Below, piece by piece: positions 31,661-47,218 of a DNA stretch of 64,000 bases (positions are counted from its first letter, which is position 1; every line of letters begins with the position of its first letter). Made by a program: the position numbers and the translations under genes. The stretch comes from a virus. Its lineage: Duplodnaviria; Caudoviricetes. The stretch is taken from IMG/VR virus record IMGVR_UViG_3300042013_000103, one strand, 5' to 3'. The notes beneath the pieces are model-generated. The model saw nothing but the letters and a program-made list of their open reading frames with translations. It was not told the origin of the DNA and did no database searches.

Positions 31661-31716
31661 ATCTCAGGGGAGCAATGCTATAGACCTTATTCGAACGCAT
31701 AGAGCGGAATACCTAT

Positions 31717-33921
31717 ATGCAATTACCTCCTTACAGCAAGAAGGGCATGTTGCCTGTCCTGTTCCAATCCGATTATGACCTGTACCCGACGGCCATTTGG
31801 GATTGGAAAACCACCAACAAATCGTTTCTGAAACTGGTGGATTTGTACGAGAATGAAATGGGGATCAAGAACTCCCGGTTCATTCTGACGTTGCTCCAGC
31901 CGGAACTGCAGGGCGTGGACCCTTACGCCGAAGACCTGACCAAGCACCAGAAATGGATGATTGCGATGGAGTGCAAGTTCAACCCGTGGTACGTGTTCCG
32001 GGAAGTCATCCGGATTCCGGCTACTTCCGGTTCGGTGCCGATTCGTTTCAAGGCCAACCGTGGCAACATCGCGTTGTTTTGGAGTTTCTTTAACCACGTG
32101 GACTTTGCCTTGCTCCAGCCGCGTCAGACCGGTAAGTCGGTGTCGACGGACTGTTTGAACACTGGCATCATGTTCATCTGGGGCGAGAAGACCACGATCA
32201 ACCTGATCACCAAAGACTCCAAACTGCGCGAAGCCAACATTGAACGCCTGAAAGACATGCGGGATCTGTTGCCCCCGTACATCTTCGAAACCACCCGCAA
32301 CGACGCCGACACCAAAGACCTGTTGACCGCAGTGATCCACGGCAACAAGTACAAGACCGCTGTGGGTCGTTCGGACAAACGTGCCGCGGATAAACTCGGT
32401 CGTGGTTTGACCGTACCCATCATGCACTTCGACGAATTGGCGTACATCGAGAACATTGAAGCATCTCTCGGTGTGGCCCTGGCATCCGGTTCGGCAGCAC
32501 GCGGTCAAGCGGCGGAGCAAGGTCAACCGTACGGCAACGTGTACACCACAACAGCGGGCGACATCACCACCCGTGACGGCGGTTACGCTCACGAGTTCAT
32601 GACCTCCGGTGCGGTGTGGACCGAGTCGTGGTTTGACCTGAGGGATAACGCGCAACTGGTTAAAGTCGTGGACAAAGAGAAGGTTGGGAAGAAGCGCCTG
32701 ATCTACGGAGCGTTCAACCACCGGCAACTGGGCAAAACCGACGCATGGCTCTACAAAGAACTGGCGGACTCCAACCAGCGGGGCGAATTGGCCGACCGTG
32801 ACTTCTTCAACATCTGGACCTTGGGCGGTGAAGGTTCCCCGTTGAACTTCGAGGACAAGAAACTGCTGCGCGGGTCCCTGCGCGAACCGGCGTTCACCGA
32901 GATCACCCCCGACGGGTACACTGTGCGTTGGTACATCCCACGGCACCAGGTGGAAGCCCGGATGCAGACGGGTCGGTTTGTCATGGGCATCGACCCTTCG
33001 GAACTGTTGGGCCAAGACAACGACGCCACCGGCATGGTGATGATCGACGTCGAGACGCACGAAATCGTGGCTTCTGGGCGGTACAACGAAACGCTGATCC
33101 CCATGCTGGCTAACTTCATGGGTAGCATGCTGATCAAGTACCCGAACATCCTGTTTGTCCCAGAACGCAAGTCGACGGGGAGTTCGATCATCGACATGAT
33201 TGTGATCATGCTGGCGAAAGTGGGCATCGATCCATTCAAACGCATCTTTAACCGGATCGTGGATGAATCCGGTATCCTCAAGACCGAGTTCGCGGAAATC
33301 CACACGCCGATGGCCCACCGTCCACCGGACTTCTACGACCGCTTCAAACGTCACTTCGGGTTCAACACCTCGGGCAGTGGTCGTTACAGCCGGAACGCGT
33401 TGTACTTGGAAGCGTTGCCGTCTTCGATGATCTACGGTGCCCGTCGCATGCACGACACCACACTGGTGAACGAGTTGTTGGGCTTGACCATCCGCAATGG
33501 CCGGATCGACCACAAACGCGGCAACCACGATGACATGGTGGTGTCGATGCTGTTGGCGCACTGGGTGCTGATCCGTGGCGAGAACCTCGGGTACTACGGC
33601 ATTAACGTGTCGGTGTTCTCCAAGGCGAAAACGCAGGACCATGAGCCGACTAACATCGAACGCTACAAAACCGAGAAGATGGACCGGGAGAAAGCGGAGT
33701 TTGAAGAACTGATGGAGCAGCTGAAGAAAGAAGGTAACCAACTGGTGGCCATGAAGCTGGAATTGCGCCTGCGTGCACTCTCTCGCCGTGTGAACGTTGA
33801 AGAGACCGTAGGGGTGGGCATTGACGCCATGTTGAAACAAGCCCGGGACGAACGGACACGTCGGGTGCGGACTGCACGGTTCGGCAGCAACAGCGGCCAA
33901 CCACAGCGTTTCGCGGCATAA
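31717..33921 (+). CDS. terL: terminase large subunit (phiKZ gp25-like)
   Basis: Walker A PRQTGKS, Walker B MHFDE, nuclease motifs GIDPSE and HDDMVVS. Confidence 0.92.
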   Translation: MQLPPYSKKGMLPVLFQSDYDLYPTAIWDWKTTNKSFLKLVDLYENEMGIKNSRFILTLLQPELQGVDPYAEDLTKHQKWMIAMECKFNPWYVFREVIRIPATSGSVPIRFKANRGNIALFWSFFNHVDFALLQPRQTGKSVSTDCLNTGIMFIWGEKTTINLITKDSKLREANIERLKDMRDLLPPYIFETTRNDADTKDLLTAVIHGNKYKTAVGRSDKRAADKLGRGLTVPIMHFDELAYIENIEASLGVALASGSAARGQAAEQGQPYGNVYTTTAGDITTRDGGYAHEFMTSGAVWTESWFDLRDNAQLVKVVDKEKVGKKRLIYGAFNHRQLGKTDAWLYKELADSNQRGELADRDFFNIWTLGGEGSPLNFEDKKLLRGSLREPAFTEITPDGYTVRWYIPRHQVEARMQTGRFVMGIDPSELLGQDNDATGMVMIDVETHEIVASGRYNETLIPMLANFMGSMLIKYPNILFVPERKSTGSSIIDMIVIMLAKVGIDPFKRIFNRIVDESGILKTEFAEIHTPMAHRPPDFYDRFKRHFGFNTSGSGRYSRNALYLEALPSSMIYGARRMHDTTLVNELLGLTIRNGRIDHKRGNHDDMVVSMLLAHWVLIRGENLGYYGINVSVFSKAKTQDHEPTNIERYKTEKMDREKAEFEELMEQLKKEGNQLVAMKLELRLRALSRRVNVEETVGVGIDAMLKQARDERTRRVRTARFGSNSGQPQRFAA

Positions 33922-33925
33922 TAGC

Positions 33926-33964
33926 AAAATCAGCCTTCTCCCGCAAAGGAGAAGGCTTTATTTC
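33926..33964. terminator. bidirectional terminator
   Basis: AGCCTTCTCC-cgcaaa-GGAGAAGGCT-TTATTT between convergent genes. Confidence 0.75.
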
Positions 33965-33965
33965 G

Positions 33966-34442
33966 TCACGCGGCCTCGGCTTCGAACTGCACCTTCAATG
34001 GACTGACGGCAGAACGGCCTGGGCGACGCACGATGCGGTACGCGTCCACACCGGCCTGGATGGTCACCCGACGCCACGGCTTCACTTCCAACACGCGCAT
34101 GGCCTCGTACAGGATCCGATCCACTTCGGCGCGGTCGATGTCCACCCGGGTTTCCACGCCGTTAATGCGGTGGATGATGTACATGTTCTCGCACAACCAA
34201 TCGTGCAACGTCGTCGCTTGACCGTACTCGCCCCAGGCAGGGATCAGCCAGGTGAACAAGAAGGGCACGGAAGCCCCGTCGGTGAGGAACCCTTTAGGGA
34301 TGTCCACCCATTTGTCCGAGTCAAACGACCCGATGTAGTACCGGAAGGCTTTCACCCGCCAGTAGTCTTTGTGCAGTGCGAGCGAAGCTTCTCGGTCGTA
34401 CGTGGTGTCCAGCGAACCGGTAAAGCGTGTAAACGTACTCAT
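33966..34442 (-). CDS. DUF1353-like protein (start MSTFTR)
   Basis: VDIPKGFLTDGASVP...ATTLHDWLC...ADRILYEAM motif set. Confidence 0.8.
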   Translation of the reverse strand: MSTFTRFTGSLDTTYDREASLALHKDYWRVKAFRYYIGSFDSDKWVDIPKGFLTDGASVPFLFTWLIPAWGEYGQATTLHDWLCENMYIIHRINGVETRVDIDRAEVDRILYEAMRVLEVKPWRRVTIQAGVDAYRIVRRPGRSAVSPLKVQFEAEAA

Positions 34443-34518
34443 GGTGTTACTCCATTCCCCGTAACAAAGTGTTACAAAAAATAAAGGCATAAAGCCCCAC
34501 CCGAAGGTGAGGCCCTAT

Positions 34519-35100
34519 TTATTCGGTTCCACCAAAGCAACGGGACGCAATCCAGTTCAGGCTGTAACGGGCCAGGTTGGGATGTGTCGGGGCAGTGACC
34601 CCGTTATAGAGTTGCCGATCCCGGGCCTTCAGGGGGATGCACGTGAGGTCACAGGTCTGCACGTGGGCCATGAACAACATAAGGTCAGCTTGGGCCTCGA
34701 CGGGCAACTCGTGCTGGGACAAGTAGGCCACGTTCTTTAAGCCTGTCTGCAGCGGCTCAGCGATGTAGTCAATGGTTCGCCAAGTCGCGGTCCGTCGTTG
34801 GTAATGGTAACTCCCCGTGGGCATGCAACACCCGCTGTCCTGTTCCAACAAGTCCAACAACTTGGTCAACATGGCACCCCCTAAGGAATCGGTGCGGGTG
34901 ACCTGTTCCTTGGTGTCCACCAGGTTCACCGACACCCGCACCATGTAAGCGCGGTAGTCCATCTGGACGGCGATCGATGCAATCCGGCCGGGGTAACACT
35001 CGTCCTCGTCCAGGAAGCTGTTGTCCTGGTCCAAGATTTGAATCAGTTTTTCGTGAAACGCATCAAGGTCCAGGTGACCTTCGGGCAAAGAACGAAACAT
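34519..35100 (-). CDS. hypothetical protein
   Basis: 193-aa ORF. Confidence 0.7.
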   Translation of the reverse strand: MFRSLPEGHLDLDAFHEKLIQILDQDNSFLDEDECYPGRIASIAVQMDYRAYMVRVSVNLVDTKEQVTRTDSLGGAMLTKLLDLLEQDSGCCMPTGSYHYQRRTATWRTIDYIAEPLQTGLKNVAYLSQHELPVEAQADLMLFMAHVQTCDLTCIPLKARDRQLYNGVTAPTHPNLARYSLNWIASRCFGGTE

Positions 35101-35114
35101 ATAACTACCCCTTG

Positions 35115-35456
35115 TTACGGCAGGATGATTTCAATACGGGTAAGTCCCCGTCCGGCTTCGAACGTGAGCTCACGGAAGTTCTTCGGCAGCACCTGCTCGA
35201 ACAAGTCACCCAAGGTGGCCAACATGTGGGTCTCCATGTCGACACTAAGGTCGTCGATCGCCCTTTCCGTTAAGGGGACGGTTACCTCAAACTCGGTGTG
35301 GTACACCGTAAGGAGCTTTACCACAAAGGAATCCTGGCGCAGAAACTTAACGGTAATGCCCTTGTACTCGCATTCGTCCATCTCGAACTTAGCGAAGTCC
35401 CTCGGGTTGTAGCGGCGCAGCACGTCCAGGACTTGGACTGTAAAAATGGTACCCAT
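35115..35456 (-). CDS. hypothetical protein
   Basis: 113-aa ORF. Confidence 0.7.
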   Translation of the reverse strand: MGTIFTVQVLDVLRRYNPRDFAKFEMDECEYKGITVKFLRQDSFVVKLLTVYHTEFEVTVPLTERAIDDLSVDMETHMLATLGDLFEQVLPKNFRELTFEAGRGLTRIEIILP

Positions 35457-35458
35457 GC

Positions 35459-35950
35459 TCAGGTTCGCCTTGTGTAGTGTTCGAAATTAAACGTGATCGG
35501 GAACTGGCCTTGGGTGGGGGATTGCGAGGCTAAGGCCCAAACCGCCGGGTCGACGACTTCGTCAAAGAACGCATCGCCGTCGTCCACGTCAAAATTAACC
35601 CGGGTGATGTACATGTCACTCACCAACTCACGGGCTTCTTTATACAGCCGTTCGCCACCGATGACGAAGAGCTTCTCGTGCAGCAGGTCTTCGGCCAGGT
35701 TTTTGGCCTGCTCCAAACTCGTGGCGTGGATCACCCCCGCGACTCCCGGGTCTTGACCGCATACCACGAAGTTAGTGCGGTTGGGAAGGGCTCTGCCGAT
35801 CGATTCCAGCGTCTTCCGTCCTTCCACCACCGCGTGGCCTGTGGTCAATGCACGGAAGTACCTCAGGTCTTCTGAGAGCTTCCACGGGATGTCGCCGGCT
35901 TTACCGATAACACCGTTGTTGCTAACTGCTACGATCAGGCAGAGTTTCAT
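35459..35950 (-). CDS. folA: dihydrofolate reductase
   Basis: LIVAVSNNGVIG..GDIPWKLSEDLRYFR..T.GHAVVEGRKT.ESIGRALPNRTN, VIGGE.LY, GDAFF. Confidence 0.95.
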   Translation of the reverse strand: MKLCLIVAVSNNGVIGKAGDIPWKLSEDLRYFRALTTGHAVVEGRKTLESIGRALPNRTNFVVCGQDPGVAGVIHATSLEQAKNLAEDLLHEKLFVIGGERLYKEARELVSDMYITRVNFDVDDGDAFFDEVVDPAVWALASQSPTQGQFPITFNFEHYTRRT

Positions 35951-35953
35951 GGG

Positions 35954-36499
35954 TTAGTCCTGTGAGCGGAATTTAATGGCACCCCGATCGAACACAAATT
36001 CGAAGTCGGTGTTGTAGTTGTGGCGAGCGCCGAGCAGCTGGTCGCTTTGGTTGACAATCACACCCAGCAGGGCCACCCCGGCAAACGCACCTATGTTCGG
36101 GACGTGGTACTCGAACACCACTTCTTTCCCGGTGGTGCTGTTCTCACGGAGATCCGCTAAAGGCGCACTCAACCCCGTGAGTTTGATGAACTGGCCCATG
36201 GCCGAGTAATGGATCTTGTACACCGCCACCCCGCGACCTTGGTCTTGCAATGCGATCAGGTCTTGTAGCTGGTACTGGTACGCCACGAACTGCAGCGGCG
36301 AGATGTTCAGCTGCGTCGGGTGGGTACCGCCCATGATCGCCCCGAAGTTCATCAACTGCTGCACCGTGAGCGTGTGCTGAATACCGGCTTGCCCTTCAAC
36401 CCGCACGTAGTTACGCACGGCAACACTGCCATCGGGTTCGTTGTTGATCATCGAGAGCACGATGTCGTCGAAGATGTTCTGGGTTTCTTGGATGCTCAT
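35954..36499 (-). CDS. conserved hypothetical protein
   Basis: 181-aa ORF with strong codon bias. Confidence 0.7.
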   Translation of the reverse strand: MSIQETQNIFDDIVLSMINNEPDGSVAVRNYVRVEGQAGIQHTLTVQQLMNFGAIMGGTHPTQLNISPLQFVAYQYQLQDLIALQDQGRGVAVYKIHYSAMGQFIKLTGLSAPLADLRENSTTGKEVVFEYHVPNIGAFAGVALLGVIVNQSDQLLGARHNYNTDFEFVFDRGAIKFRSQD

Positions 36500-36837
36500 T
36501 GGGTAGCCTTTACGAGTTGAAATTGTTTTTCGAAGCTTTTCTTTTCATGGCGGCGGTACGCCACGATTTTGCCTTGTTGGTCACGCACTGTGACAATGTA
36601 GTCACCAGGGCACACGCGCTCAGTGCCGCACAGCTGATCATTAGGCAAAGGCACCAGCCGACCATGGTCATGACCAGCCTGATTGCACTTGACACAGAGT
36701 GTTGGAACTTTCCAGCTGCCATAGCGCACCACCTGACCTTCTTGACTGGGATTGCTCACTTGGTCCATGGGGTGATCCCCGTTCTTAAACCACACGTGAG
36801 CCTCTAAGGTATCTGGGATGCGTGTATAAAGAGGCAT
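36496..36837 (-). CDS. phage protein of the WFKNGDHP...CPGDY type
   Basis: EAHVWFKNGDHP, CxxC, HG, VCPGDYIV motifs. Confidence 0.65.
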   Translation of the reverse strand: MPLYTRIPDTLEAHVWFKNGDHPMDQVSNPSQEGQVVRYGSWKVPTLCVKCNQAGHDHGRLVPLPNDQLCGTERVCPGDYIVTVRDQQGKIVAYRRHEKKSFEKQFQLVKATQ

Positions 36838-37103
36838 TGCCTGACTCCGGGGAAAGATAGGTTAAGTATACTCTTAGGCTTACGAGTACTTTTACCGCGA
36901 AGGGCTCTACAATGCGTTTTGAGCGGTTTCGCTACGTACCCCCTAACGTGATGTATGGAGTCAAAAATAGTCGCTTAAAACGCCTCAAGTTAGCTCGAAA
37001 AAGTAAGCACTAAAAGGATGTGTATCGTATGCGAGAGACAAATTACTGAACTGAATCTAAGTATGTTTATTCACCTCCAACACACCTTAATGGGCACAGA
37101 CCA

Positions 37104-39386
37104 ATGATCAAAGTTATTGTTAAACTCGACGGAACGGAAGAAGCGTTCTCCCCTCACAAGATCAATGGCTGGGGCGAATGGGCAGCCAAAGAACTGGGTG
37201 ATCGTGTTGACTGGTCCGCGGTGGTAATGGATGCGGTGGCGTCGTTGCCATCGAAGTGCACATCTCAAGAACTGCAACAAGCGCTGATTGATCAGTGCCT
37301 CGACCGCAAAACCTGGTCGTATTACCTGATGGCCGGTCGTCTCTACGCGGTGTTGCTGCGTAAGAAGCACTACGGTACCGCGGGTATCCCGACCGTGAAA
37401 GCGTTGCACACCAAAATGCGTAAGGCCGGTGTGATCGTGAAGATGGACTACTCGACACAAGAATACAAACAAATCGAGAAGTTGATCAACCACGACCTCG
37501 ACCTGAATTGCCCGCATTTCTCGCTACACCACACGCGTCGCAAGTACGCGCTGCAGAACCGCGTCACCAAAGAAGAATTCGAAACCCAGCAATTCACTTA
37601 CATGCGCATGGCCATGGCGTTGGCTGAACACGAGCCCCGTGACGTTCGCATGGAACACCTGAAGAACTTCTACTGGCTGTTCTCCAACAAGAAACTGTCG
37701 GCCCCGACCCCGAACTATGTCAACCTGGGCACCGTGCTCAAAGGCTTCGCGTCGTGCTGCCTGTTCGCGACGGGTGACGAAGGCGTGTCATTGGCCATGG
37801 GCGACTACATTGCCAACATCATGACCCAGTCCGCGGCCGGCATCGGTGTGAACGTGATGTGCCGTTCGATCGGCGACGAAGTCCGTAAAGGTCTGATCAT
37901 TCACCAAGGCAAACTCCCGTACTACGCGGTGATGGGCAAGTCCGTCGGTGCCAACCTGCAGAACGGCCGGGGCGGTGCGTGCAACGTCTTCTATAATGCC
38001 TTCGACCCGGAAGCCAACATCATCTCCCAGCTGCGCAACCCACGCAGTCCTGAAGACCGTCGTAACCGTGACCTGCACTACACGCTGATCACCAACCAGT
38101 TCTTCGACCAGAAAGCGGCCAAGAACGAAGACGTGTTCACCTGGAACATTTACACCGCTCCGGAACTGCACGCGGCGTTCTATAGCAAAGACAACGAACT
38201 GTTCGCGGAACTGTACGCCAAGCGCGAAGCCGACCCAACGTTCAAGAAGAATTACATCTCGGCCCGTAAGCTGTTGCTGGTCGCGTTGAACGAAGCCTAC
38301 GAAACCGGTACCACCTACTGGTACAACGTGGACGAGTCCAACCGCCACACGCCGTTCCTGGACGCCATCCACAGCTCCAACCTGTGCGTGGAAATCCACG
38401 AAGCGACCATCCCGTATTTGAACATGATGGACCTGTACTCCACCGAAGACCATGGCCGTGGCGAAATCGCGACCTGTTCGTTGGCGGCCATCCCGGTGGA
38501 CAACATCGAGAACGATAAAGAGTACGCCCTGGCGTCGTACTACGCGTTGAAAATGATCGACTACTGCATCAACCACGCTGAATACGCTTTCCCGCACCTG
38601 GCGTTCACCGCCAAGCAACGGATGTCGGCGGCCGTGGGCATCATGGGCCTGGCCACCCACATGGCCCGTAACCAGTTCTCGTACTCTTCCCCGGAAGGCA
38701 AGCGCGAACTGCACTTCGTGGCAGAGCGCCATGCGTTCCACATGATCAGCGCGTCGCTGCGCATCGGTAAAGAACGCGGCAATGCGCCGTGGATGCACAA
38801 GACCAAATGGCCATCGGGCTGGTTGCCAATCGACACCTACAACCGTAACGTCGACACCATCCTGGAAGGCGGCTTTGAGCTGACCTACAAATGGGAACCG
38901 CTGCGTGCCGAGATTATCGCCAACGGCGGCATCGGTCACACGGTCACTTGCGCGCACATGCCAGGTGAGGCCTCCTCCAAGGCCCTGGGTGGCACGAACT
39001 CGTTGTACGGTGCTCGTCGTCTGGTCATCAACAAAACCGACGGCAACACGGTCGTACAGTGGGCTGCACCATTCGGCGACGACCCGGCATACAAGTACCA
39101 CTTGGCCTGGGACATCCCATCCGATGACATGATCGATTGCTACGCAGTCTTCCAGAAGTTCACGGACCAAGGGATCTCGGCGGACATGTTCCGTCGCATT
39201 GTCGGTGAAGAGAAGATCACCACCAATGAAATGTTGAAACAGCATTTCCGTATGAGGAAGATGGGTCTGAAGGGACGCTACTACCAGAATACCGAAACCA
39301 CCGACAACCTGTCGTTGGAAGCGTTGAGCTCAGCGTTTGAAAACGTAACCGAACAAATGTGCCCTAGCGGTGTGTGTTCCGTTTAA
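37104..39386 (+). CDS. nrdA: class Ia ribonucleotide reductase alpha subunit
   Basis: N-terminal ATP-cone-like segment, PTP, SCCL, SNLCVE active-site loop, YY motif, C-terminal CPSGVC. Confidence 0.95.
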   Translation: MIKVIVKLDGTEEAFSPHKINGWGEWAAKELGDRVDWSAVVMDAVASLPSKCTSQELQQALIDQCLDRKTWSYYLMAGRLYAVLLRKKHYGTAGIPTVKALHTKMRKAGVIVKMDYSTQEYKQIEKLINHDLDLNCPHFSLHHTRRKYALQNRVTKEEFETQQFTYMRMAMALAEHEPRDVRMEHLKNFYWLFSNKKLSAPTPNYVNLGTVLKGFASCCLFATGDEGVSLAMGDYIANIMTQSAAGIGVNVMCRSIGDEVRKGLIIHQGKLPYYAVMGKSVGANLQNGRGGACNVFYNAFDPEANIISQLRNPRSPEDRRNRDLHYTLITNQFFDQKAAKNEDVFTWNIYTAPELHAAFYSKDNELFAELYAKREADPTFKKNYISARKLLLVALNEAYETGTTYWYNVDESNRHTPFLDAIHSSNLCVEIHEATIPYLNMMDLYSTEDHGRGEIATCSLAAIPVDNIENDKEYALASYYALKMIDYCINHAEYAFPHLAFTAKQRMSAAVGIMGLATHMARNQFSYSSPEGKRELHFVAERHAFHMISASLRIGKERGNAPWMHKTKWPSGWLPIDTYNRNVDTILEGGFELTYKWEPLRAEIIANGGIGHTVTCAHMPGEASSKALGGTNSLYGARRLVINKTDGNTVVQWAAPFGDDPAYKYHLAWDIPSDDMIDCYAVFQKFTDQGISADMFRRIVGEEKITTNEMLKQHFRMRKMGLKGRYYQNTETTDNLSLEALSSAFENVTEQMCPSGVCSV

Positions 39387-39397
39387 AGCCTACAACT

Positions 39398-39426
39398 TGG
39401 GTGGTGTAACAGCCACCCATTTTATC
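39398..39426 (+). terminator. hairpin plus U-tract between nrdA and nrdB
   Basis: TGGGTGGT...GCCACCCA followed by TTTTAT. Confidence 0.5.
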
Positions 39427-39451
39427 CCTGATTTGTCAATTGGAACTCAGC

Positions 39452-40615
39452 ATGAACGCACCGTTTAAAGTAGACCAGCTCCCCACGAACATTTTCAACC
39501 TGCAGAAAAACGATTACGATGTCCCGGAAATCATCCTGGGGCAGCAACCCGGGTTGTTCGACTCGATCAACAACCACTTCCCGGCGCCGTGGAAGATTTA
39601 CAAACGCTTGCGCAAGCTGGACTGGGACGAACACGAAGTCGATTTTGGCCCGTGCAACGCCGAGTTCAAATCCTGCGATCCGGACATCCGCGACATCATG
39701 ATTGAAACGCTGGCCTGGCAATGGGAAGCGGACTCGATCGCCGCCCGTTCCATCGTGGGCATCTTGGCCCCGGTGATCACCGATTCCCGCATCTGGCAAG
39801 CGTACCTGCGCATCAACGAAAACGAAGGCGTGCACGCACTGACGTACTCCGAGATCGTTCGCGTGTCGTTCGATAACCCTGACGAAATCCGTGCGGCCGT
39901 CCTCGCCGTGGAAGAAGCTCAGTCACGCATGTCGGCCGTGGCGAATATCATGGCGACGGCGTACACCGCGTCCCACGAGTACGCGCTGGGCATCCGTCAG
40001 AACGACCAGTCCATGTACAACGACATCTTCATGTATTTCATCGCCCTCTACTTCTTGGAGCGCATTCAGTTCATGGCGTCGTTTGCCATCACCTTCGCCA
40101 TCGGTAAAGCCGGGAACTTCCAACCGATCTCCGACGTGGTGAAGAAGATTGCACAGGACGAATTCGAGATCCATTCGCAGTACGGCCAAGAGATCATCCG
40201 CATCCTGTTGCAATCGGAACGGGGCAAGCTGGCGTACATCCAGTGCAAACAGCGCATCCTCGGCCTGGCCAAAGAAATCCTGTGGACCGAAACCACCTGG
40301 GCCAAGTACATCTTCCGCAACAACCGTGAACTGGTTGGCGTGAACATTCCGAAGCTGGTCAACTGGGTGCAGTTCAACGGCCTGGCAGCGTTCACCTTCC
40401 TGGGCATTCAAGACGACGTCGTGTCGTTGTGCCAAGAAGACTATGAAAAGGAATTCAACCTGCCGCTGGCAATGCCAAAGGTCAACCCGATCCCGTTCCT
40501 GCAGGATTACCTCGACATCGCCGGTAGTCAGGCATCGCCACAAGAGCAATCGCAAACTGCTTATATGGTGAATTTGATGGACGCTGCAGGGGAGCAAGAA
40601 GTTTTCGATATGTAA
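39452..40615 (+). CDS. nrdB: class Ia ribonucleotide reductase beta subunit (last ~21 codons apparently replaced)
   Basis: W...E, EADS, ExxH..TY, ERIQF..SF, DEFEIH, PQE...Y motifs. Confidence 0.95.
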   Translation: MNAPFKVDQLPTNIFNLQKNDYDVPEIILGQQPGLFDSINNHFPAPWKIYKRLRKLDWDEHEVDFGPCNAEFKSCDPDIRDIMIETLAWQWEADSIAARSIVGILAPVITDSRIWQAYLRINENEGVHALTYSEIVRVSFDNPDEIRAAVLAVEEAQSRMSAVANIMATAYTASHEYALGIRQNDQSMYNDIFMYFIALYFLERIQFMASFAITFAIGKAGNFQPISDVVKKIAQDEFEIHSQYGQEIIRILLQSERGKLAYIQCKQRILGLAKEILWTETTWAKYIFRNNRELVGVNIPKLVNWVQFNGLAAFTFLGIQDDVVSLCQEDYEKEFNLPLAMPKVNPIPFLQDYLDIAGSQASPQEQSQTAYMVNLMDAAGEQEVFDM

Positions 40616-40664
40616 CAAAAAAGAAACGGCATAAGCCCTCTCCCGAAGGAGAGGGCGATATGTC
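40616..40664. terminator. bidirectional terminator between nrdB and the endonuclease
   Basis: GCCCTCTCC-CGAA-GGAGAGGGC with an A-tract. Confidence 0.8.
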
Positions 40665-40665
40665 A

Positions 40666-41352
40666 TTAAACGTAGAACCAGTCTTTCCACTGCGGCGAGT
40701 TTGATTTTAATCGAAGACGAGTTGTGTCGGCCCTAGTGTTATTCTGCCTAGCCGCTTCACGTGAGCTTGCATAGACGATTCCATTTATTGAAACCTTCTT
40801 ACTGCGCGCACGATTTCTAGCCCGACACATCTCCGCAATGGATTCAGGTTGCGGCTTTCCTTTCTTTTGGGTGGATAGTATCTGTTTGGTTAGATCTGAA
40901 GTAATTCTTCCAGTTAGGGCTGCACTTATTTTCTTCCTTACCTCTTCACTAACGACCGCCCCCTTCATGCGTTCCGACAGGCGTTGTCTATGAGCAGCAT
41001 CATACACCCTACCTTTATTAGAAATCCTAGCATCCATCGCGAGGTTTAACAATAACCCTGTTGGAGCATAATGGTTGATAAGGGCTTGTTCTACGTCATA
41101 GGCATCTTCGCGAGTCTTGGTTACATAGAACACTTTATTAAAATTAGGGTTTTCATTGTAAGCAGCCTGGAATTGATGATTAATGTGATAGTTACCCTTT
41201 AGTAACGTTAGATGGTTGGCAGCACGTAAACCGATCCGTGTGGAACTACCCACGTAGACTTTCCGGGTCTTCTCTTGGTAGAGACAATACACTCCGGTAG
41301 TCCATGATGTGTTAGTAATGTGGTCTGGATGAGGAATTAAAGTATTTAACAT
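40666..41352 (-). CDS. free-standing GIY-YIG homing endonuclease with NUMOD3 repeats (start MLNTLI)
   Basis: GVYCLY...KVYVGSS...R..NH; NUMOD3-like repeats (RQRLSERMKG, RKKISAALTG); C-terminal INGIVYASSREAAR HTH; AAGGAG RBS. Confidence 0.9.
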   Translation of the reverse strand: MLNTLIPHPDHITNTSWTTGVYCLYQEKTRKVYVGSSTRIGLRAANHLTLLKGNYHINHQFQAAYNENPNFNKVFYVTKTREDAYDVEQALINHYAPTGLLLNLAMDARISNKGRVYDAAHRQRLSERMKGAVVSEEVRKKISAALTGRITSDLTKQILSTQKKGKPQPESIAEMCRARNRARSKKVSINGIVYASSREAARQNNTRADTTRLRLKSNSPQWKDWFYV

Positions 41353-41401
41353 AAATACTCCTTTAAGTAAAGATGATCTCCGTTGAACTACGTTCACCGA
41401 A

Positions 41402-41411
41402 ATAATATAGT
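41402..41411 (-). promoter_or_regulatory. early-promoter-like ACTATATTAT upstream of the endonuclease
   Basis: One mismatch to the window's ACTATATTAC motif. Confidence 0.55.
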
Positions 41412-41423
41412 CACATAACGTGT

Positions 41424-41489
41424 TCGAATCCATTGTACCAAGTTAACCTGATGGACTCGCATGGCGAACAAGAAGTGTTCGAGATGTAA
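41424..41489 (+). pseudogene. stranded duplicate of the nrdB 3' end (SNPLYQVNLMDSHGEQEVFEM*)
   Basis: Aligns ungapped to nrdB SQTAYMVNLMDAAGEQEVFDM* (14/21 identical aa, same stop position); no start codon. Confidence 0.85.
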
Positions 41490-41572
41490 TGCTATGTATT
41501 GCTGTACCCATCCCGTGGCAAAGAACCCTTTACTTTTCTTGGAAGGGTTTTTACTGCGCGGTGGCGTTAACC

Positions 41573-41605
41573 CATAGGGGTCCGCCTTCGGGCGGGCTCT
41601 TATGT
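41573..41605 (+). terminator. intrinsic terminator
   Basis: GGGTCCGCC-TTCG-GGCGGGCTC-TTATG. Confidence 0.7.
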
Positions 41606-41655
41606 CGTCAATTTTATGTAACGTCATTTAAACTTTCTGAAACTGAGTAGCCCTC

Positions 41656-43806
41656 ATGAATACTTCCGAACAACAAACACCCACGGATGGCGGGGATCAA
41701 CCACCATTGCACGAAGACAACTCACGTGAAGACCCTGCTAACCGTCCGGAACCCACGGAAGATGAAGGCTCGCGTCAACACCACGTCATTCCGACCGAAC
41801 CCTTGGCGGAACCGGATTACGACCTGTGCCCGGAAGGCAACACCCCTGGGGCCGGCAACATCTACGCCATGGAACGCTTCCTCGACCGTACTCAGTTTAA
41901 AGAACTGGTGGGCACCCCGAGCCTGGAAACGTTCCTGTTCGGTCCCCACGTGACCCCCGCTGAAACAGAAGCCGCCACGTTCACGTTCCAGGAGCACATT
42001 TACCGATCGTCGGACTTGCAGAAGTTGGTGGACTGCATTCCCGTTACGCAGTTCCCTTTGGAGAAGCTTCAGTGGATGGCGGGTTTGCCGTTTGATCAAG
42101 CCCTGGTGGATGCTGCTGACCTCAGCTTGCCGGTGGTCGTGACCGAACACGAGATGGGCAGTTGGACCGCCCCGGATGGGCTGCCGCGTGTTATTAAAGC
42201 CCTGCAGCAGAAAGCCGTCACCCTCCCCGCCAAAGTGGTCCCGCCTGGGTTTGAATTGAGCCTGCATCCAGTCAAGCCAGGCAACGAAGGGGTGTTCGAC
42301 TTCTTTAAGAAACTGTTCCAGCCTTCCCCCAAAGCCCACGACGCCAACGCGGTGAAGGTGCTGGAGAGCCAGTACAAGAACCTGACCTGGCTGAACCAAC
42401 AAAGCTTTGCGGAAGGGGAGATTGACTTGGGCAAAGCGGGCAAAGCACTGGCCATTAAAGGCAAGGTACCCGCGGACATTCAAACCGCCGTGACCTTGGC
42501 GCTGAAAGAGTTCGGGGACGCCAGTCGGGATTTGGTCAAAGCACTCAAGCCGATTTTGGGTGAGGTCGATGAACGGCTGGATGATGTGTACGACAGCAGT
42601 TCGGCTGAGTGGGAAATGGACCAAATAGCGGATCTGGTGGATGAAGCCAACACCCTGATTCGCAATGCCACGGCTGCCTTTACCTTGGGTGACGACAAGG
42701 TCACCTCGACCACCACCAAAGCGCTGGATGCCAAAGGCGTGCAACAGTTGGCGACGGGGTTGCTGAAGTTGATCGCTCTGTACGAGACCACCCGGCAACA
42801 GTTGGGGAACCTCGGCGTGGCGGAAGCCGAATGGCAAATGGCGGACATCCTGACCGAATACCCGGATCAGACGTTGGCGGAAAGTTCCTTTGCAGGCTTT
42901 CGTATCTTGGACGAACTCGAAGAAGTGATTCGGGTGTTGACCATCGCCATTGACAAATCGATCAAGGCCACCGGTGGCACTCCATCCACGGTGTCCAAAG
43001 AAGGCTTTGGGGATTTCATCAAAGGGCTATTCACCAAGAAACCGGTGGAAGTGGATTTCCGTAACCTCACGGAAGTGCGGCGCAAACTGAAAGAAACCCT
43101 GTTGTCGGATAAGTGGTTGGCCCAACAGGGTTTCATCACCGATGACGTGACCTTGGTGGTACCGGCTTTCTTGGTGACCGGCGACTACAGTTCCGTCGTG
43201 CGCATCATGGAGAACAGCGCCAAAGGGGCGATTGCCAAAAACAAGGCCGCCTTGCAGACGTGGTACGCGACGTGGGAACGCATTAACAAATACGCCACCA
43301 GCGGTGATATGAACAGTTGGACCGTTGCCGGCGTCCGCGACATGATCGACAGCGTGGACACCGACGCCGACATTGATTTCGTGGACATGCCGGATCTGAT
43401 GAAAGGTCCCCGTTCGGTGAAACTCCCTGCCCTTAATGCCGCTCAGGTTAAAGCGGTGGCTGAAGTGATCCTGGCGCTGAACGACTCCGACGTGGGGTTT
43501 TTCCGGAAGTCGGTGGAAGGCCAATGGCGCGACGATAACTTCTTGGGCAAAGGGGACATCAGCAAGTGGGATCAAAACAGTGCGTTCAGCAAAGAACGTT
43601 TGGCCACCATCAAAGACCCTGCGGTAAAGGCGGCGGTCGATGAATTGTTTGAAACCTGTGAACATGCGTGCAACAACGTGTTCAAAGGGTTCTTCAACGG
43701 CATGGACGTGTACTGGCACAACCATCATCACACCGCGACGCTGCTGGTGGCGTGGATTGAGAAGTCGCTGGGCAAGACCGTGTCGAAAGAAGTCTACGTG
43801 AAATAA
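41656..43806 (+). CDS. probable virion internal-head protein, protease-processed, with ParB-like N-terminal domain and two repeated domains
   Basis: GNE|GVFDFFKKLF and SKE|GFGDFIKGLF repeats match the S/A/G-x-E head-protease site; DLSLPVVV...DGLPRVIKA...LPAKV is ParB-like. Confidence 0.65.
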   Translation: MNTSEQQTPTDGGDQPPLHEDNSREDPANRPEPTEDEGSRQHHVIPTEPLAEPDYDLCPEGNTPGAGNIYAMERFLDRTQFKELVGTPSLETFLFGPHVTPAETEAATFTFQEHIYRSSDLQKLVDCIPVTQFPLEKLQWMAGLPFDQALVDAADLSLPVVVTEHEMGSWTAPDGLPRVIKALQQKAVTLPAKVVPPGFELSLHPVKPGNEGVFDFFKKLFQPSPKAHDANAVKVLESQYKNLTWLNQQSFAEGEIDLGKAGKALAIKGKVPADIQTAVTLALKEFGDASRDLVKALKPILGEVDERLDDVYDSSSAEWEMDQIADLVDEANTLIRNATAAFTLGDDKVTSTTTKALDAKGVQQLATGLLKLIALYETTRQQLGNLGVAEAEWQMADILTEYPDQTLAESSFAGFRILDELEEVIRVLTIAIDKSIKATGGTPSTVSKEGFGDFIKGLFTKKPVEVDFRNLTEVRRKLKETLLSDKWLAQQGFITDDVTLVVPAFLVTGDYSSVVRIMENSAKGAIAKNKAALQTWYATWERINKYATSGDMNSWTVAGVRDMIDSVDTDADIDFVDMPDLMKGPRSVKLPALNAAQVKAVAEVILALNDSDVGFFRKSVEGQWRDDNFLGKGDISKWDQNSAFSKERLATIKDPAVKAAVDELFETCEHACNNVFKGFFNGMDVYWHNHHHTATLLVAWIEKSLGKTVSKEVYVK

Positions 43807-43826
43807 TACTCAACTGTCCTGTTATA

Positions 43827-43948
43827 TAGGTGAAGATGTCGCTGAGCGCTCCCCATGCTGGGGAAGGTGCTAGTACCGGTCGTATGTGTATCGGTCAGTT
43901 GGGGAAACCCAACCACCCAGCGGCATCTTCATCCTACCTTTATGTTTT
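43827..43948 (+). ncRNA. putative structured RNA, copy 1 of a five-helix motif
   Basis: 18-bp terminal helix with one bulge and one G-U, inner P2-P5, GAAA tetraloop, U-rich tail; second copy at 44853. Confidence 0.7.
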
Positions 43949-43965
43949 ATTTCGGAGAATACGTC

Positions 43966-44148
43966 ATGACCACCACCATCACCATTGCAGCTCATTGCAC
44001 CCCCGACAAAGAAGTCTCGGTTCGCATCCTGGACCACACCAACGGCACCGTGGTGGAAACGTTTGCCATGCAAGACGGCGACACGACCAACCGTGTGGTG
44101 TTTGATGGCCGTGAACTCACCGTGTCCGAAGTGCTGAAAGCGAAGTAA
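43966..44148 (+). CDS. 60-aa beta-rich protein MTTTITIAAHCTPDKEVSVRI...
   Basis: GGAG RBS; track start at 43855 rejected because it lies inside the RNA motif. Confidence 0.75.
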   Translation: MTTTITIAAHCTPDKEVSVRILDHTNGTVVETFAMQDGDTTNRVVFDGRELTVSEVLKAK

Positions 44149-44151
44149 CCC

Positions 44152-44829
44152 ATGACCGTCGATATCAGCACATACCTCATCGCCACCCCGTTGCCCGTGT
44201 CGGACACCAACCCAGTGGCGCTGGAACTCATGGGGGCACAAGCGTTGATCGATTGCCCCACGGTGATTCAGCAACTGGAGGATGGGTCGGTGCAGTTGTC
44301 CGCCCCTACCTTGGGCGCGTCCAGCAAAAGCACGCACCGTACCCGCTGTGAATGGAAGGACGCTGCGTACTGGGCCTTGGACAGTGCCGCACACCACTGG
44401 AGCCGCCAAGAGCTGACCTTGCTTAAAGTCAACTCAGCGGAAAAAGTGGTGGTGGCCCAGATCCACGTGAAAGGCGCCACCACCCCACCCCTGAAAGTGT
44501 TCTGGGATAAAGGTAAGCTTCGCATCGGGTTCCGGGCCAGTTTTGTTGACCCGGCCATCGCCAGCTCGACGCTCCTGTACAACGTGCCTTTGAACACCCC
44601 CTTCAAAATCGCCATACACGCCACCCTGGGTGGTTCTGTGTCGGTGACGGTGTCGTGTGAGGGGAACAAGGTAACGAGTCCTGTGCTGCGTCTGGACGCG
44701 TCGTGGAAGGATCAGTTGTTCCAGTTCCACGGTGGTATCTACAATCAAGTGGATTACACCGAAGAAACCTCGGCAGAAGATGGGTCGGTGTGCGTGATCA
44801 GTTCGCTGGTCACCACGCACGGTGCATAA
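44152..44829 (+). CDS. polysaccharide lyase family 7 (alginate lyase-like)
   Basis: RTRCEWK (cf. RxELR), QIH, FQFHGGIYNQ (cf. YFKAGxYxQ); ~225-aa jelly-roll size. Confidence 0.8.
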   Translation: MTVDISTYLIATPLPVSDTNPVALELMGAQALIDCPTVIQQLEDGSVQLSAPTLGASSKSTHRTRCEWKDAAYWALDSAAHHWSRQELTLLKVNSAEKVVVAQIHVKGATTPPLKVFWDKGKLRIGFRASFVDPAIASSTLLYNVPLNTPFKIAIHATLGGSVSVTVSCEGNKVTSPVLRLDASWKDQLFQFHGGIYNQVDYTEETSAEDGSVCVISSLVTTHGA

Positions 44830-44852
44830 AACTACCCGGGTGTAAACTAGTA

Positions 44853-44971
44853 TAGGTGAAGATGTCGCCGAAAAGTCCCTGATGATGGGATGGTGCAAAG
44901 GTCGGGCAATACGTCTGGCTAATCGGGGAAACCCCAGCATCCTGCGACATCTTCACCCTAGCTTTATGTTT
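44853..44971 (+). ncRNA. putative structured RNA, copy 2 of a five-helix motif
   Basis: 16-bp terminal helix with a bulge at the same position as copy 1, P2-P5, GAAA loop, CTTTATGTTT tail. Confidence 0.7.
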
Positions 44972-44990
44972 CAAAGGACCGGTATGGTAT

Positions 44991-45079
44991 ACGGGTTCTT
45001 GCACCGAGCGTGAGATAGAGCCTCCCAAGCTCTGTCGCCGGGGCTGAGGATCGCGGTTAGCTCAGTTCAAAAAACCCGC
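44991..45079 (+). ncRNA. possible three-way-junction RNA
   Basis: CGGGTT/AACCCG closing stem; GATAGAGC/GCTCTGTC and GGGCTGAG/CTCAGTTC hairpins. Confidence 0.35.
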
Positions 45080-45098
45080 CCAAATTTCGAGGTTCAAT

Positions 45099-45257
45099 AT
45101 GATCCGACCATTCACGTTGAGTGATATAAAACCCTTACCTAACGCCAACGGCCGAGAGCACAGTTTAGACATGGTTCGTAGGTATCAGGAAGCGCAGGCT
45201 AAGCTGGAAGCGATCTGCAAAGAGAAAGGCATTCCTGTGCCGATCATGGTTTGTTGA
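45099..45257 (+). CDS. 52-aa protein MIRPFTLSDIKPLPNANGREHSLDMVRRYQEAQAKLEAICKEKGIPVPIMVC
   Basis: Hand-called; GAGGT RBS; 3 nt before next gene. Confidence 0.55.
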   Translation: MIRPFTLSDIKPLPNANGREHSLDMVRRYQEAQAKLEAICKEKGIPVPIMVC

Positions 45258-45260
45258 GCC

Positions 45261-45455
45261 ATGAGTCTCGCTGCCTTGATCCAACTCACTGAACGCTTAA
45301 AGAATCAAACCCCCGATGAAAGGGCTGCCCGACATAAGGCGGCCAATGAACGGTTGCGCCTATTCAACATCGAGTGCGAACAACGCATTCGAGACTCGAT
45401 CCCCACCCAAGCACAATTGAACAAAGTGTGTAACTGGGGTACTTTACACGGATAA
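45261..45455 (+). CDS. small hypothetical protein
   Basis: ORF track. Confidence 0.6.
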   Translation: MSLAALIQLTERLKNQTPDERAARHKAANERLRLFNIECEQRIRDSIPTQAQLNKVCNWGTLHG

Positions 45456-45460
45456 AACGA

Positions 45461-45590
45461 ATCTGCTGCAGCGGATAATGCAATGCATCCGGATTACGAT
45501 AGTGCCAGCGCCTCGTAAGCGTGAGAAGACCCTAGGCCTCAGGATGAGGGAAAAGACCCGTAGCCGGCGGAGAGCGTTACATTAACACCA
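45461..45590 (+). ncRNA. possible structured RNA (nested long hairpin with two apical hairpins)
   Basis: TAATGCAATGC/GCGTTACATTA and CCGGATTACG/CGTAGCCGG nested stems; followed by a terminator. Confidence 0.45.
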
Positions 45591-45594
45591 CCCA

Positions 45595-45618
45595 GGGAGA
45601 TCTTCGGATCTCCTTTAT
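45595..45618 (+). terminator. intrinsic terminator
   Basis: GGAGATC-TTCG-GATCTCC-TTTAT. Confidence 0.75.
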
Positions 45619-45637
45619 AACGCAACAGGACTTTACC

Positions 45638-45946
45638 ATGACCGCAGCCATCCATGAATTTCCCGTTTACAAAATCGTCCAGACCAACAACAGTTCACGC
45701 TGGCCTTGTTGGAACGTGTTGTGTTCCGCCTACGGTGACTCCGGTTACCTGTACAGCTACGCCGCGGTAGAAAAATGGGTGGCGGGGCACATTACCCAAT
45801 ACGTGAAGTTATCGGACCATCTGGCGGTCGTTCGGGAACTGGAACAAACGGAGAAGCAAGCGAAGGATCTCGGCTATGCTAACTTAGAGGATGCCTTGGC
45901 TGATTTAGCCGTACTCAAGGAACAACGTGACTACCCGGGAAACTAA
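45638..45946 (+). CDS. hypothetical protein
   Basis: 102-aa ORF with an AGGA RBS. Confidence 0.7.
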   Translation: MTAAIHEFPVYKIVQTNNSSRWPCWNVLCSAYGDSGYLYSYAAVEKWVAGHITQYVKLSDHLAVVRELEQTEKQAKDLGYANLEDALADLAVLKEQRDYPGN

Positions 45947-45958
45947 CGTTTAACTCAC

Positions 45959-45984
45959 GAGAGGTCTTCGGATCTCTCTTATGC
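45959..45984 (+). terminator. intrinsic terminator
   Basis: GAGAGGTC-TTCG-GATCTCTC-TTATG. Confidence 0.7.
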
Positions 45985-46004
45985 TGTCTTGTACTGATAA
46001 CCCT

Positions 46005-46012
46005 TATATTAC
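46005..46012 (+). promoter_or_regulatory. early promoter motif TATATTAC
   Basis: Exact phiKZ early consensus just after a terminator and before 46047. Confidence 0.6.
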
Positions 46013-46046
46013 GTGCACTTTAGCACATTACCTCGAGACACCCATA

Positions 46047-46574
46047 ATGGCTATCTTTACACAAACCCGTGTTGATTACATGGGGATCATTGAAGCCCTG
46101 TTACAAGGCACCAATGAAAGTTATGAACGTAACAAAGAAGTGATGAACTGGGGCGACCACGCCGTTACTTTGCGCGATTGTCGCACGGTAGGATTCCTCA
46201 CCGGCCGTCAAACGGGCAAGGGAGAGTTCATCGCCGACTTCTACCGGAAGTACCCGAATGATACTTCGGTGTTGGTACGGGACGCCAAGCTCCAAAGTGT
46301 GGCAAGGGCGAACATCTTAAAAGGCGCTGATGGTCCCACGCCTCACGTCAGCGGTCCCGTGGCCGTGGCCACTGTGATTAAATCGCACATGGCCGATGTA
46401 ACGGCGGTTCCGGAAAGCGTATCTGACGACCCGTTGAACCGCCGTTACATCATCGTGGACGACGCCACGTTCTTCTTTGACATGTTGCATTCCATGGGCA
46501 TAAAGCGGAACAACTTCTTCCGGGCCATCGCCAGCCGGCGCGGCACCGACGTTAACATCATTTTAATAGGGTAA
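46047..46574 (+). CDS. small P-loop NTPase-like protein (start MAIFTQ)
   Basis: GRQTGKG Walker A and YIIVDD Walker B. Confidence 0.65.
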   Translation: MAIFTQTRVDYMGIIEALLQGTNESYERNKEVMNWGDHAVTLRDCRTVGFLTGRQTGKGEFIADFYRKYPNDTSVLVRDAKLQSVARANILKGADGPTPHVSGPVAVATVIKSHMADVTAVPESVSDDPLNRRYIIVDDATFFFDMLHSMGIKRNNFFRAIASRRGTDVNIILIG

Positions 46575-46579
46575 TCAAT

Positions 46580-47218
46580 ATGTTCAATCTGTTTCTAATG
46601 GGCCTTAAAGCGTGGGTGTTGTCTTACGTGAACGTCGCCCGGATCACCAGCTGGTTCGTCAGAGCAGACCTGTGGTGGAAAGGTTACCGTGTGGCCCAGT
46701 TGGAGGAGAACGTGGCTGTAATCGATCCACAGGAGCCCACCGAGGCAGAATGCAACTACTTGCAACTCCTCCGGCGCACGTTGGATACCCAATGCCTCCT
46801 CCCCCTGTTTGGTAATGACATTGACCCAACACAGCTGGGGAAGATCAAAGAGGAACTCTACGAATTCTTCCGTGAACGGTACCTCCAACAGAAGGCCCAA
46901 GAAGCAACTCCGGGGCCACGTGAATACACTTTCGAAGACGTGTTCATCCATGCTCGAAACGACTTGGTAATGGTCCTGTGGTTAGACCTGTGTTCGGCTG
47001 ACCGCATTCCCCTGTGGTACGCGATGACTGGCTTGACGTGTGTGAAGCCGAATCTCTTCGTTCAGGTCCATCGGGGTGGTAACCAGATCGTCAGTGAACA
47101 CGCGAACCAGCTGGAACTGTTCAACGCCGGTATCCAGGCCTTGTTGGCCCAAGAGAACCCCGACGTGAAAGAGTGGGTGGAACAAGTGGCAGCAGCGGAT
47201 GGTCGCAAAGTCGCTTAA
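46580..47218 (+). CDS. hypothetical protein
   Basis: 212-aa ORF. Confidence 0.7.
   Translation: MFNLFLMGLKAWVLSYVNVARITSWFVRADLWWKGYRVAQLEENVAVIDPQEPTEAECNYLQLLRRTLDTQCLLPLFGNDIDPTQLGKIKEELYEFFRERYLQQKAQEATPGPREYTFEDVFIHARNDLVMVLWLDLCSADRIPLWYAMTGLTCVKPNLFVQVHRGGNQIVSEHANQLELFNAGIQALLAQENPDVKEWVEQVAAADGRKVA

Follow-up and report, generated by a model that had tools for sequence, protein, structure and literature searches.

The DNA analyzed here is a stretch of 64,000 nucleotides (nt) from a virus of the Caudoviricetes (IMG/VR record IMGVR_UViG_3300042013_000103), referred to below as the window. We examined its nrdB gene, which encodes the small subunit of a class Ia ribonucleotide reductase and is followed by a convergent, free-standing homing endonuclease gene of the GIY-YIG type and, beyond the latter, by a second copy of the nrdB 3' end (Table 1). 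The nrdB reading frame extends from the ATG at 39452 to a stop at 40615; the body of the gene runs to a conserved ...QASPQEQ motif, after which a 21-codon tail gives the C-terminal end SQTAYMVNLMDAAGEQEVFDM followed by the stop codon. An earlier annotation of the locus made from the letters alone (the first-pass annotation) had placed the end of nrdB at 40550-40615, in agreement with the sequence and its open reading frames (ORFs). We call this segment the in-gene tail, the second copy the stranded tail, and the 874 nt from 40550 to 41423 the cassette. The DNA comes from a phiKZ-like (chimallivirus) jumbo phage that has not been cultured, and its NrdB protein is found on a 308.6-kb contig. The named phages with the most similar NrdB are Pseudomonas phages of the phiKZ, PA1C and PhiPA3 groups (58-61% identity), the closest relatives anywhere are 60-63% identical, and neighboring genes of the window carry phiKZ-specific Pfam families.

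Table 1. Features of the nrdB locus, in window coordinates. GC3, guanine-plus-cytosine (GC) content at third codon positions; pS and pN, differences at synonymous and replacement sites; SNP, single-nucleotide polymorphism; X1 and X2, two metagenome strains; L020 and L022, loci of the two nearest relatives.
Feature	Position	Strand	Basis
nrdB, native body (class Ia ribonucleotide reductase small subunit)	39452..40549	+	Pfam PF00268; GC3 0.77
Putative replacement tail of nrdB, 21 codons + stop, cassette-borne	40550..40615	+	codon usage, pS/pN, Y356 alignment
GC-rich hairpin between convergent nrdB and endonuclease genes	40628..40664	.	-25.8 / -24.1 kcal/mol, z -6.6 / -5.2
Free-standing I-TevI-like GIY-YIG homing endonuclease gene, 228 aa, apparently intact	40666..41352	-	Pfam, PHROG 314, residues, GC3
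Endonuclease 5' region	41353..41423	-	GGAG ribosome site 41359-41362; early-promoter-like motif CTATATTAT...GTG 41395-41410
Stranded, putatively native nrdB tail, 21 codons + stop	41424..41489	+	tail match; codon score 27th percentile
Presumed original nrdB terminator, hairpin + U-run	41521-41552	+	fold
Second hairpin, then TTATGTCG..AATT.TAT motif (to 41625)	41573-41604	+	fold; also behind nrdB in L020, L022
Native downstream gene, 716 aa, virion-protein-like	41656..43806	+	L020 homology, synteny, PHROG virion structural protein
Near-identical tract, 3.49 kb, candidate co-conversion tract	39815..43307	.	1 SNP X1 vs X2

The first-pass annotation had described a second, 66-nt copy of the tail with 14 of 21 identical residues, and both the counts and a score background bear this out. 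The segment 41424-41489 reads SNPLYQVNLMDSHGEQEVFEM and a stop, in frame, and is identical to the in-gene tail at 14 of 21 residues and 43 of 66 bases. When the in-gene tail was scored (BLOSUM62) against the 127,870 six-frame 21-mers of the 64-kb window, the stranded tail reached a score of 71 and the next best segment 24 (background mean -18.8, standard deviation 8.3). Thus, the match is far beyond chance. The stranded tail lacks both a start codon and a ribosome site, and its frame contains a TAA at 41403, indicating that it is not a gene. Synonymous sites are saturated with differences between the two tails (pS 0.93) whereas replacement sites are not (pN 0.24), and 7 of the 12 non-methionine codons that specify the same residue in both differ synonymously. 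Among 20,000 simulations in which 23 random substitutions were introduced into either tail, none kept at least 14 identical residues and more than half gave a stop. The values of pS and pN therefore point to two once-functional alleles and not to a decayed local duplication; each tail appears to have served a working NrdB over a long period, in a lineage of its own, until the two met in one genome.

To score codon usage we took as reference the phage's own usage in 27 long ORFs, comprising 1,470 windows of 21 codons. The in-gene tail falls in the lowest 1.2% of these windows, whereas the stranded tail lies at the 27th percentile. Within the endonuclease gene, no 21-codon window scores as high as the stranded tail and 21% score as high as the in-gene tail. 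The claim that the in-gene tail uses AT-rich codons foreign to nrdB and the stranded tail the phage's own C/G-ending codons thus stands in part: the former is atypical, the latter is ordinary and tends to C/G-ending codons, but the total GC content of the two is nearly equal (0.42 in-gene, 0.44 stranded). Along nrdB, the codon score falls only in the last windows, from about 40500 onward, and atypical codons (GGT AGT .. GCA .. CCA) start at about 40523, some 27 nt ahead of the duplication. These last ~27 nt of the nrdB body (40523-40549) may be a co-converted stretch, a suggestion that rests on few codons. The codon switch at 40523 was also tried as the left boundary of the cassette, instead of 40550, and was dropped, with only about 8 codons behind it.

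The order of genes and signals downstream provides a second line of evidence. In the two nearest relatives, L020 and L022, which come from other metagenomes and share 63% NrdB identity with the window, the genes are ordered DHFR (dihydrofolate reductase)-nrdA-nrdB, the next large gene follows nrdB after ~80-100 nt, and no endonuclease gene is found behind nrdB. In L020 this large gene is homologous to window 41656-43806 (E 2e-22). Directly behind nrdB, both relatives carry a hairpin followed by TTATGTCG..AATT.TAT (L020 ~6125-6175, L022 ~6165-6215), so that the DNA behind their nrdB matches that behind the stranded tail (41573-41625), not that behind the in-gene tail. Deleting 40550-41423 from the window restores the native order of nrdB, terminator and next gene. 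Codon usage, synteny with these endonuclease-free relatives and the pS and pN values thus support the in-gene tail (SQTAY...) as foreign and the stranded tail as native, the same polarity as had been proposed. The two tails have in common an unusual ...EQEVF(D/E)M end, absent from other relatives, which suggests that the donor belonged to the same sub-lineage; if so, the borrowed tail would be compatible with the NrdA of this phage.

The position of the insertion bears on what the cassette has to carry. In an alignment with E. coli R2 (phmmer), the Glu of the PQE motif of the phage NrdB corresponds to E350 and the Tyr of the tail to Y356. The insertion point thus falls between the equivalents of E350 and Y356, directly 3' of the most conserved codons of the region. 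Radical transfer to the large subunit of class Ia reductases passes through Y356, and R1 is bound by the C-terminal residues of R2. The replaced segment of nrdB, with its Y356-equivalent Tyr and NrdA-binding end, is therefore predicted to be essential, and since such a tail is indispensable the cassette has to supply one. Consistent with the earlier view that NrdB is kept intact, nrdB has a complete tail and its own stop ahead of the block.

The convergent gene encodes a 228-aa product with an N-proximal Pfam PF01541 GIY-YIG catalytic domain (residues 20-97, 28.9 bits, cut-off 22.6) and a C-terminal PF20987 (I-TevI_DNA-bd) domain (residues 179-227, 28.9 bits, cut-off 27), and it is matched by PHROG 314 'homing endonuclease' (5e-26). 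In an alignment with 10 distant homologues, residues Y22, Y33, G35, R43, H47, E88 and N103 are conserved. Since both domains score above cut-off and the GIY-YIG residues are kept, the enzyme is predicted to be intact and functional, and by its domains it belongs to the GIY-YIG family in its I-TevI-like, two-domain form. Compared with the PDB by sequence, it gave no match at E 0.01, and a search of viral contigs found no endonuclease-related loci. Its GC3 is 0.41 vs 0.55-0.80 in the 30 other long ORFs, which makes it the sole low-GC3 ORF of the window; 300-nt windows across 40851-41650 rank within the six stretches of lowest GC in the window, the very lowest included.

The hairpin between the two genes carries a U-run on the minus strand only and is thus a predicted canonical terminator for the endonuclease transcript; it would shield nrdB from antisense read-through. 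Its 22-nt core, GCCCTCTCC-CGAA-GGAGAGGGC, is identical at window positions 40635-40656 and 19073-19094. The same core is found, with its flanks, in convergent intergenic regions of the Pseudomonas phages PA1C (L018, ~2525-2546) and Phabio (L019, ~2527-2548); the conserved flanks are an A-run ahead and GATATG(T/C)C behind. Over ~55-60 nt, the hairpin region is 87-90% identical to those of PA1C, Phabio and others, and megablast of 39440-41700 against 50,697 phage records returned only this hairpin of ~55 nt. As the core is common to Pseudomonas jumbo phages, the cassette would come from the same phage world. The core is far better conserved than the genes around it, and its sequence suggests a bidirectional terminator or regulatory element shared across the family.

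On the other side of the endonuclease gene, CTATATTAT followed by ..GTG sits 50 nt upstream of the ATG. The sequence CTATATTAY occurs 6 times in the window vs 0.11 expected, and CTATATTAC is found five further times, always on the minus strand. The six promoter-like sites share an extended motif with further upstream positions: GACTATATTAC with a shared upstream ATT..AA lies at 5308, 7221, 15454, 22940 and 53675 (all minus) as well as at 41402. The early-promoter consensus of phiKZ, TATATTAC, and that of 201phi2-1 match the endonuclease motif (PMC7058600 Table 2), and the GACTATATTAC motif is probably the early (virion RNA polymerase) promoter of this phage. At the endonuclease gene, this upstream ATT..AA overlaps the first codons of the stranded tail (41424-41432), so that the displaced tail may now form part of the endonuclease promoter. 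The first-pass annotation had described an element composed of a recoded tail, a terminator, an endonuclease and a promoter. Each of these parts is present, as a foreign tail, a hairpin with a U-run, an intact opposite-strand GIY-YIG gene and a chimallivirus promoter motif, together with the displaced tail; the functions of terminator and promoter are those predicted from the motifs.

From these observations we propose, with a probability of roughly 0.8, that an 874-nt mobile cassette (40550-41423) was inserted in the 3' end of nrdB, right after the QASPQEQ codons. The parts of this proposal that the sequence supports directly are the anatomy of the cassette, its foreign origin, the polarity of the two tails and the evolution of both as functional tails. 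Read along nrdB, the cassette would consist of a foreign 21-codon tail with its stop, the hairpin terminator, the opposite-strand endonuclease gene and its early promoter. The borrowed tail would complete NrdB by providing the radical-transfer Tyr (the Y356 equivalent) and the NrdA-binding end, so that no RNA or protein splicing would be needed, while the phage's own tail would have been pushed ~0.9 kb downstream and have lost its translation. In the native allele before insertion, ...CCACAAGAGCAA would have led directly into TCGAATCCA..., in a locus about 874 bp shorter. Enzymes of the I-TevI type bind the insertion site and cut nearby (PMC2988022). The phage endonuclease would similarly recognize the uninterrupted native sequence across the insertion point, a site that the insertion and the different spelling of the new tail would destroy, thereby protecting the carrier genome. 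Where carriers and endonuclease-free relatives infect the same cell, the relatives would then be cut and would acquire the cassette as the break is repaired from the carrier; homology would be provided on the left by the nrdB body and on the right by the stranded tail and downstream DNA. The locus offers a clear, well-preserved and probably active example of an end-replacing homing endonuclease cassette.

Two rhizosphere metagenome strains from different studies, X1 (2025) and X2 (2022), carry the cassette at the same place. Over 17.5 kb (29452-46963), the 2022 contigs were compared with the window, whose sequence is that of the 2025 contigs. The two strains differ by 159 SNPs (0.91%), of which only one falls in the 3.49-kb tract around the cassette, where ~19 would be expected at the lowest nearby SNP density. 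This single SNP is synonymous and lies inside the endonuclease gene. The tract is the longest with at most 1 SNP, the next non-overlapping one measuring 1.7 kb, and it reaches 0.7 kb to the left and 1.9 kb to the right of the cassette. A young shared tract around an endonuclease is the product of homing with co-conversion (PMC2988022). As a co-conversion footprint, the tract is only suggestive because ordinary recombination between strains could also produce it. Among the runs searched, words of the cassette were found only in X1 and X2, which is not evidence of its absence elsewhere, and no RNA run was listed for the stretch or the cassette. A third run, X3 (wastewater, labelled metagenomic RNA-Seq and possibly DNA), contains a 96-97% identical relative at depth 3-7 across 39463-40548 and 41489-42400. 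Its contigs cover 40251-40548 and 41489-41638; none covers 40713-41419 and none joins across the block, but these contigs are short (~150-300 nt) and other gaps exist, and the gap over the cassette was not used as evidence for an endonuclease-free allele.

Several observations weigh against the cassette interpretation or limit it. The near-equal GC content of the two tails is one, and the first codons of the stranded tail (AAT CCA TTG) are not preferred ones. The similarity of both tails to the nearest relatives is about equal (9-10 of 21 residues to P0003, 7 of 21 to P0002), and a tail phylogeny, made as a count over relatives' tails, did not discriminate the native tail. In the collections searched we found no close endonuclease-free relative with an assembled tail, so that the stranded tail is taken as native from its codon usage and synteny and not from a direct comparison. 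The tail duplication was present in none of the 19 relatives' loci. Degenerate DNA patterns covering both tails had no match in viral and metagenome contigs; besides seven chance matches, a shorter tail pattern returned a single NrdB whose tail is similar (L039). The eleven homologues of the endonuclease are weak (at most 34% identity), and the three that were looked up lie at other loci, not at nrdB. Overall, no second occurrence of the cassette was seen in viral contigs, homologue loci, pattern searches or runs beyond X1 and X2, although absence from databases is not exclusion. Independent recurrence, which would show that tail and endonuclease gene move together, was thus not found. Finally, SNPs between X1 and X2 are patchy in general, so that the low-SNP tract could reflect ordinary recombination.

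This lack of recurrence would fit a locus that is the scar of a single event, an explanation that we consider unlikely. The endonuclease gene would have stood free behind the nrdB of a lower-GC chimallivirus, and repair of a cut would have copied the donor's nrdB end, terminator and endonuclease from the left, with the right end joined without homology at the break and the native tail left behind; the in-gene tail would then be no more than co-converted donor DNA, and the target of the enzyme need not span the junction. The hairpin behind the in-gene tail, of Pseudomonas jumbo-phage type (87-90% identity), fits the 3' region of a donor nrdB, and the atypical codons that begin ~27 nt before the duplication resemble a co-conversion tract. 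Many chimalliviruses are lower in GC than this phage, and a donor of that kind would explain the AT-rich codons without recoding. Whatever its origin, however, the block now has homology on both sides in relatives with a similar tail and would home as a unit; the 3.49-kb low-SNP tract of the two strains points to a block that was transferred recently and in one piece, and the same design recurs in fungal mitochondria (PMC3630166). A reversed polarity, in which the in-gene tail is native and the hairpin, the endonuclease and a foreign tail fragment were inserted after the nrdB stop, is very unlikely. Each tail is indeed contiguous with native DNA on one side, and neither the uninformative tail phylogeny nor the similar GC of the tails opposes it. 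It conflicts with the codon usage of the in-gene tail and the typical usage of the stranded one, as well as with the position of the relatives' syntenic intergenic region behind the stranded tail, and a donor with an endonuclease and a bare nrdB tail would itself need the arrangement that is to be explained.

The two remaining explanations fare worse. Phage nrd genes often hold group I introns with endonuclease genes (PMC7344957, PMC2988022), and an intron or other spliced or recoded element would let mature NrdB use the downstream tail. We regard this as highly improbable: no Rfam family, group I introns included, was detected at E <=1 within 39000-42500, nrdB already has a complete, conserved tail with its stop ahead of the block, and the endonuclease gene lies on the opposite strand with its own predicted promoter and terminator. 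The same results agree with the earlier description of the element as intron-less. If the nrdB end had been duplicated in tandem within this genome, one copy had drifted and an unrelated endonuclease gene had entered between the two, this would account for their equal length and for the unusual ...VF(D/E)M end that they share. The probability of such a course is close to nil in view of the saturation of synonymous but not of replacement sites, the failure of all neutral-drift simulations to keep 14 of 21 residues (more than half creating a stop), and the different codon usage of the copies. An end-replacing cassette thus remains the interpretation that we favor.

Arrangements of this kind have been described in fungal mitochondria, as had been stated in the first-pass annotation and as the literature confirms (PMC3630166, PMC6279837, PMC2988022). 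Mobile ORFs (mORFs) that make 'gene hybrids' are known from atp6 of Allomyces macrogynus and from atp6, atp9 (GIY-YIG), cox2 and nad3 of Glomus sp. (PMC3630166), and in Endoconidiophora resinifera the C-terminal ends of atp6 and cob are duplicated, with GIY-YIG or LAGLIDADG ORFs on the flanks (PMC6279837). As in mORFs, the phage endonuclease ORF lies near the 3' end of an essential gene, with a foreign, diverged C-terminus in frame upstream and the native C-terminus downstream; the copies are diverged as DNA (63.5% identity in Glomus atp6, 65% here) and conserved as protein, and neither an intron nor an intein is involved. The structural features that define mORFs, an in-frame inserted C-terminus with the native one downstream and a foreign vs native origin of the two, are present here, as judged from the sequence. 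The host, however, is a bacteriophage, not an organelle, and the target is nrdB; the phage endonuclease gene lies on the opposite strand with a phage-type promoter and terminator, whereas an mORF is in phase or co-transcribed with its host gene. Mobility and cleavage were shown biochemically in Allomyces (as reported in PMC3630166), whereas the phage cassette is known from sequence alone.

Among phages, the nearest comparison is the intronless homing of T4-type phages, with the free-standing SegF, SegG and MobE (PMC2988022) and with MobE and nrdB (PMC2790892). There too, a free-standing GIY-YIG or HNH gene lies in or beside conserved phage genes, including nrd genes, and spreads by double-strand-break repair with co-conversion of the flanks, of which a low-divergence tract is the expected footprint. 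The T4-type endonuclease genes are found between other genes or divide the invaded gene, which then yields two polypeptides (Aeh1 nrdA, T4 39/60, gene 43), whereas here nrdB is kept whole by a substituted end. Gene splitting, in three cases, is the sole outcome given for in-gene insertion in a review of these systems, which describes no end replacement (PMC2988022). Like I-TevI of the T4 td intron, the phage enzyme combines two domains recognized by Pfam, a GIY-YIG catalytic one at the N-terminus and an I-TevI-type DNA-binding one at the C-terminus; unlike I-TevI it is not intron-encoded, and its sequence similarity to that enzyme is low. T4 mobA plus the gene 60 bypass cassette, reportedly described by Bonocora et al. 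in 2011, offers a further parallel. In that system, too, extra sequence that accompanies a free-standing endonuclease gene keeps the invaded essential gene working and disrupts the target (bioRxiv 10.1101/2022.08.31.505936), but the rescue consists of translational bypassing with a split gene, whereas the nrdB cassette replaces the gene end. We found no published phage case of a duplicated gene end in a literature search that left most subscription journals outside its coverage. The principle is thus known from mitochondria. What is new is its setting in the nrdB of a chimallivirus, with an I-TevI-like gene on the opposite strand, a predicted phage early promoter for that gene and a candidate conversion tract at the population level.

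A few further observations concern the surroundings of the cassette. The hairpin with TTATGTCG..AATT.TAT is kept ahead of the next large gene in relatives whose proteins are only 27-63% identical, and it may be a promoter or regulatory site. The 716-aa product of the downstream gene aligns twice (residues 200-372 and 443-705) to the same N-terminal region of the 883-aa L020 protein, indicating internal repeats. Clustering of SNPs between X1 and X2 is strong, with, for example, 13 in 43452-43951. In X2 (L045), six consecutive bases at 33942-33947 and two more at 33962-33963 differ from X1; the segment 33942-33963, which lies within the gene at 31717-33921 or just beyond it, is a small patch of replaced sequence. 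Some related jumbo-phage NrdB proteins (L039 9831-11981; P0053, 535 aa; P0103, 533 aa) contain an insert of ~150-330 residues placed exactly at the metal-binding ENE|(G)VHA motif. This insert is probably an intein and probably a further sign that the nrdB of related jumbo phages is often hit by selfish elements.

The finding adds a third way for a selfish nuclease to live harmlessly inside an essential phage gene, besides introns or inteins and gene splitting, namely to bring along a spare gene end. Annotation pipelines overlook the chimeric genes and short pseudo-ends that arise when an insertion replaces a gene end, and such insertions can distort gene phylogenies. At the same time, the stranded tail marks the insertion point to the base and provides a ready prediction of the enzyme's target. 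More tentatively, and at somewhat less than even odds for the whole, cassettes that replace the tail or the start of a gene would be a general route by which free-standing homing endonucleases enter essential phage genes without introns or inteins, the E350-Y356 linker of NrdB may be a convergent hot spot, and the conserved tract would reflect spread at present. If this is true, the 3.5-kb tract of the 2022 and 2025 rhizosphere strains would show the cassette spreading in nature now, and in nucleus-forming phages the enzyme must also reach the DNA of the other phage. In nucleus-forming jumbo phages, an intron-encoded endonuclease has been reported to take part when co-infecting phages compete (PMC12908238). 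From its sequence, the free-standing nuclease described here, with the radical-transfer tail of ribonucleotide reductase as its putative target, would be a further candidate for a part in this kind of contest.

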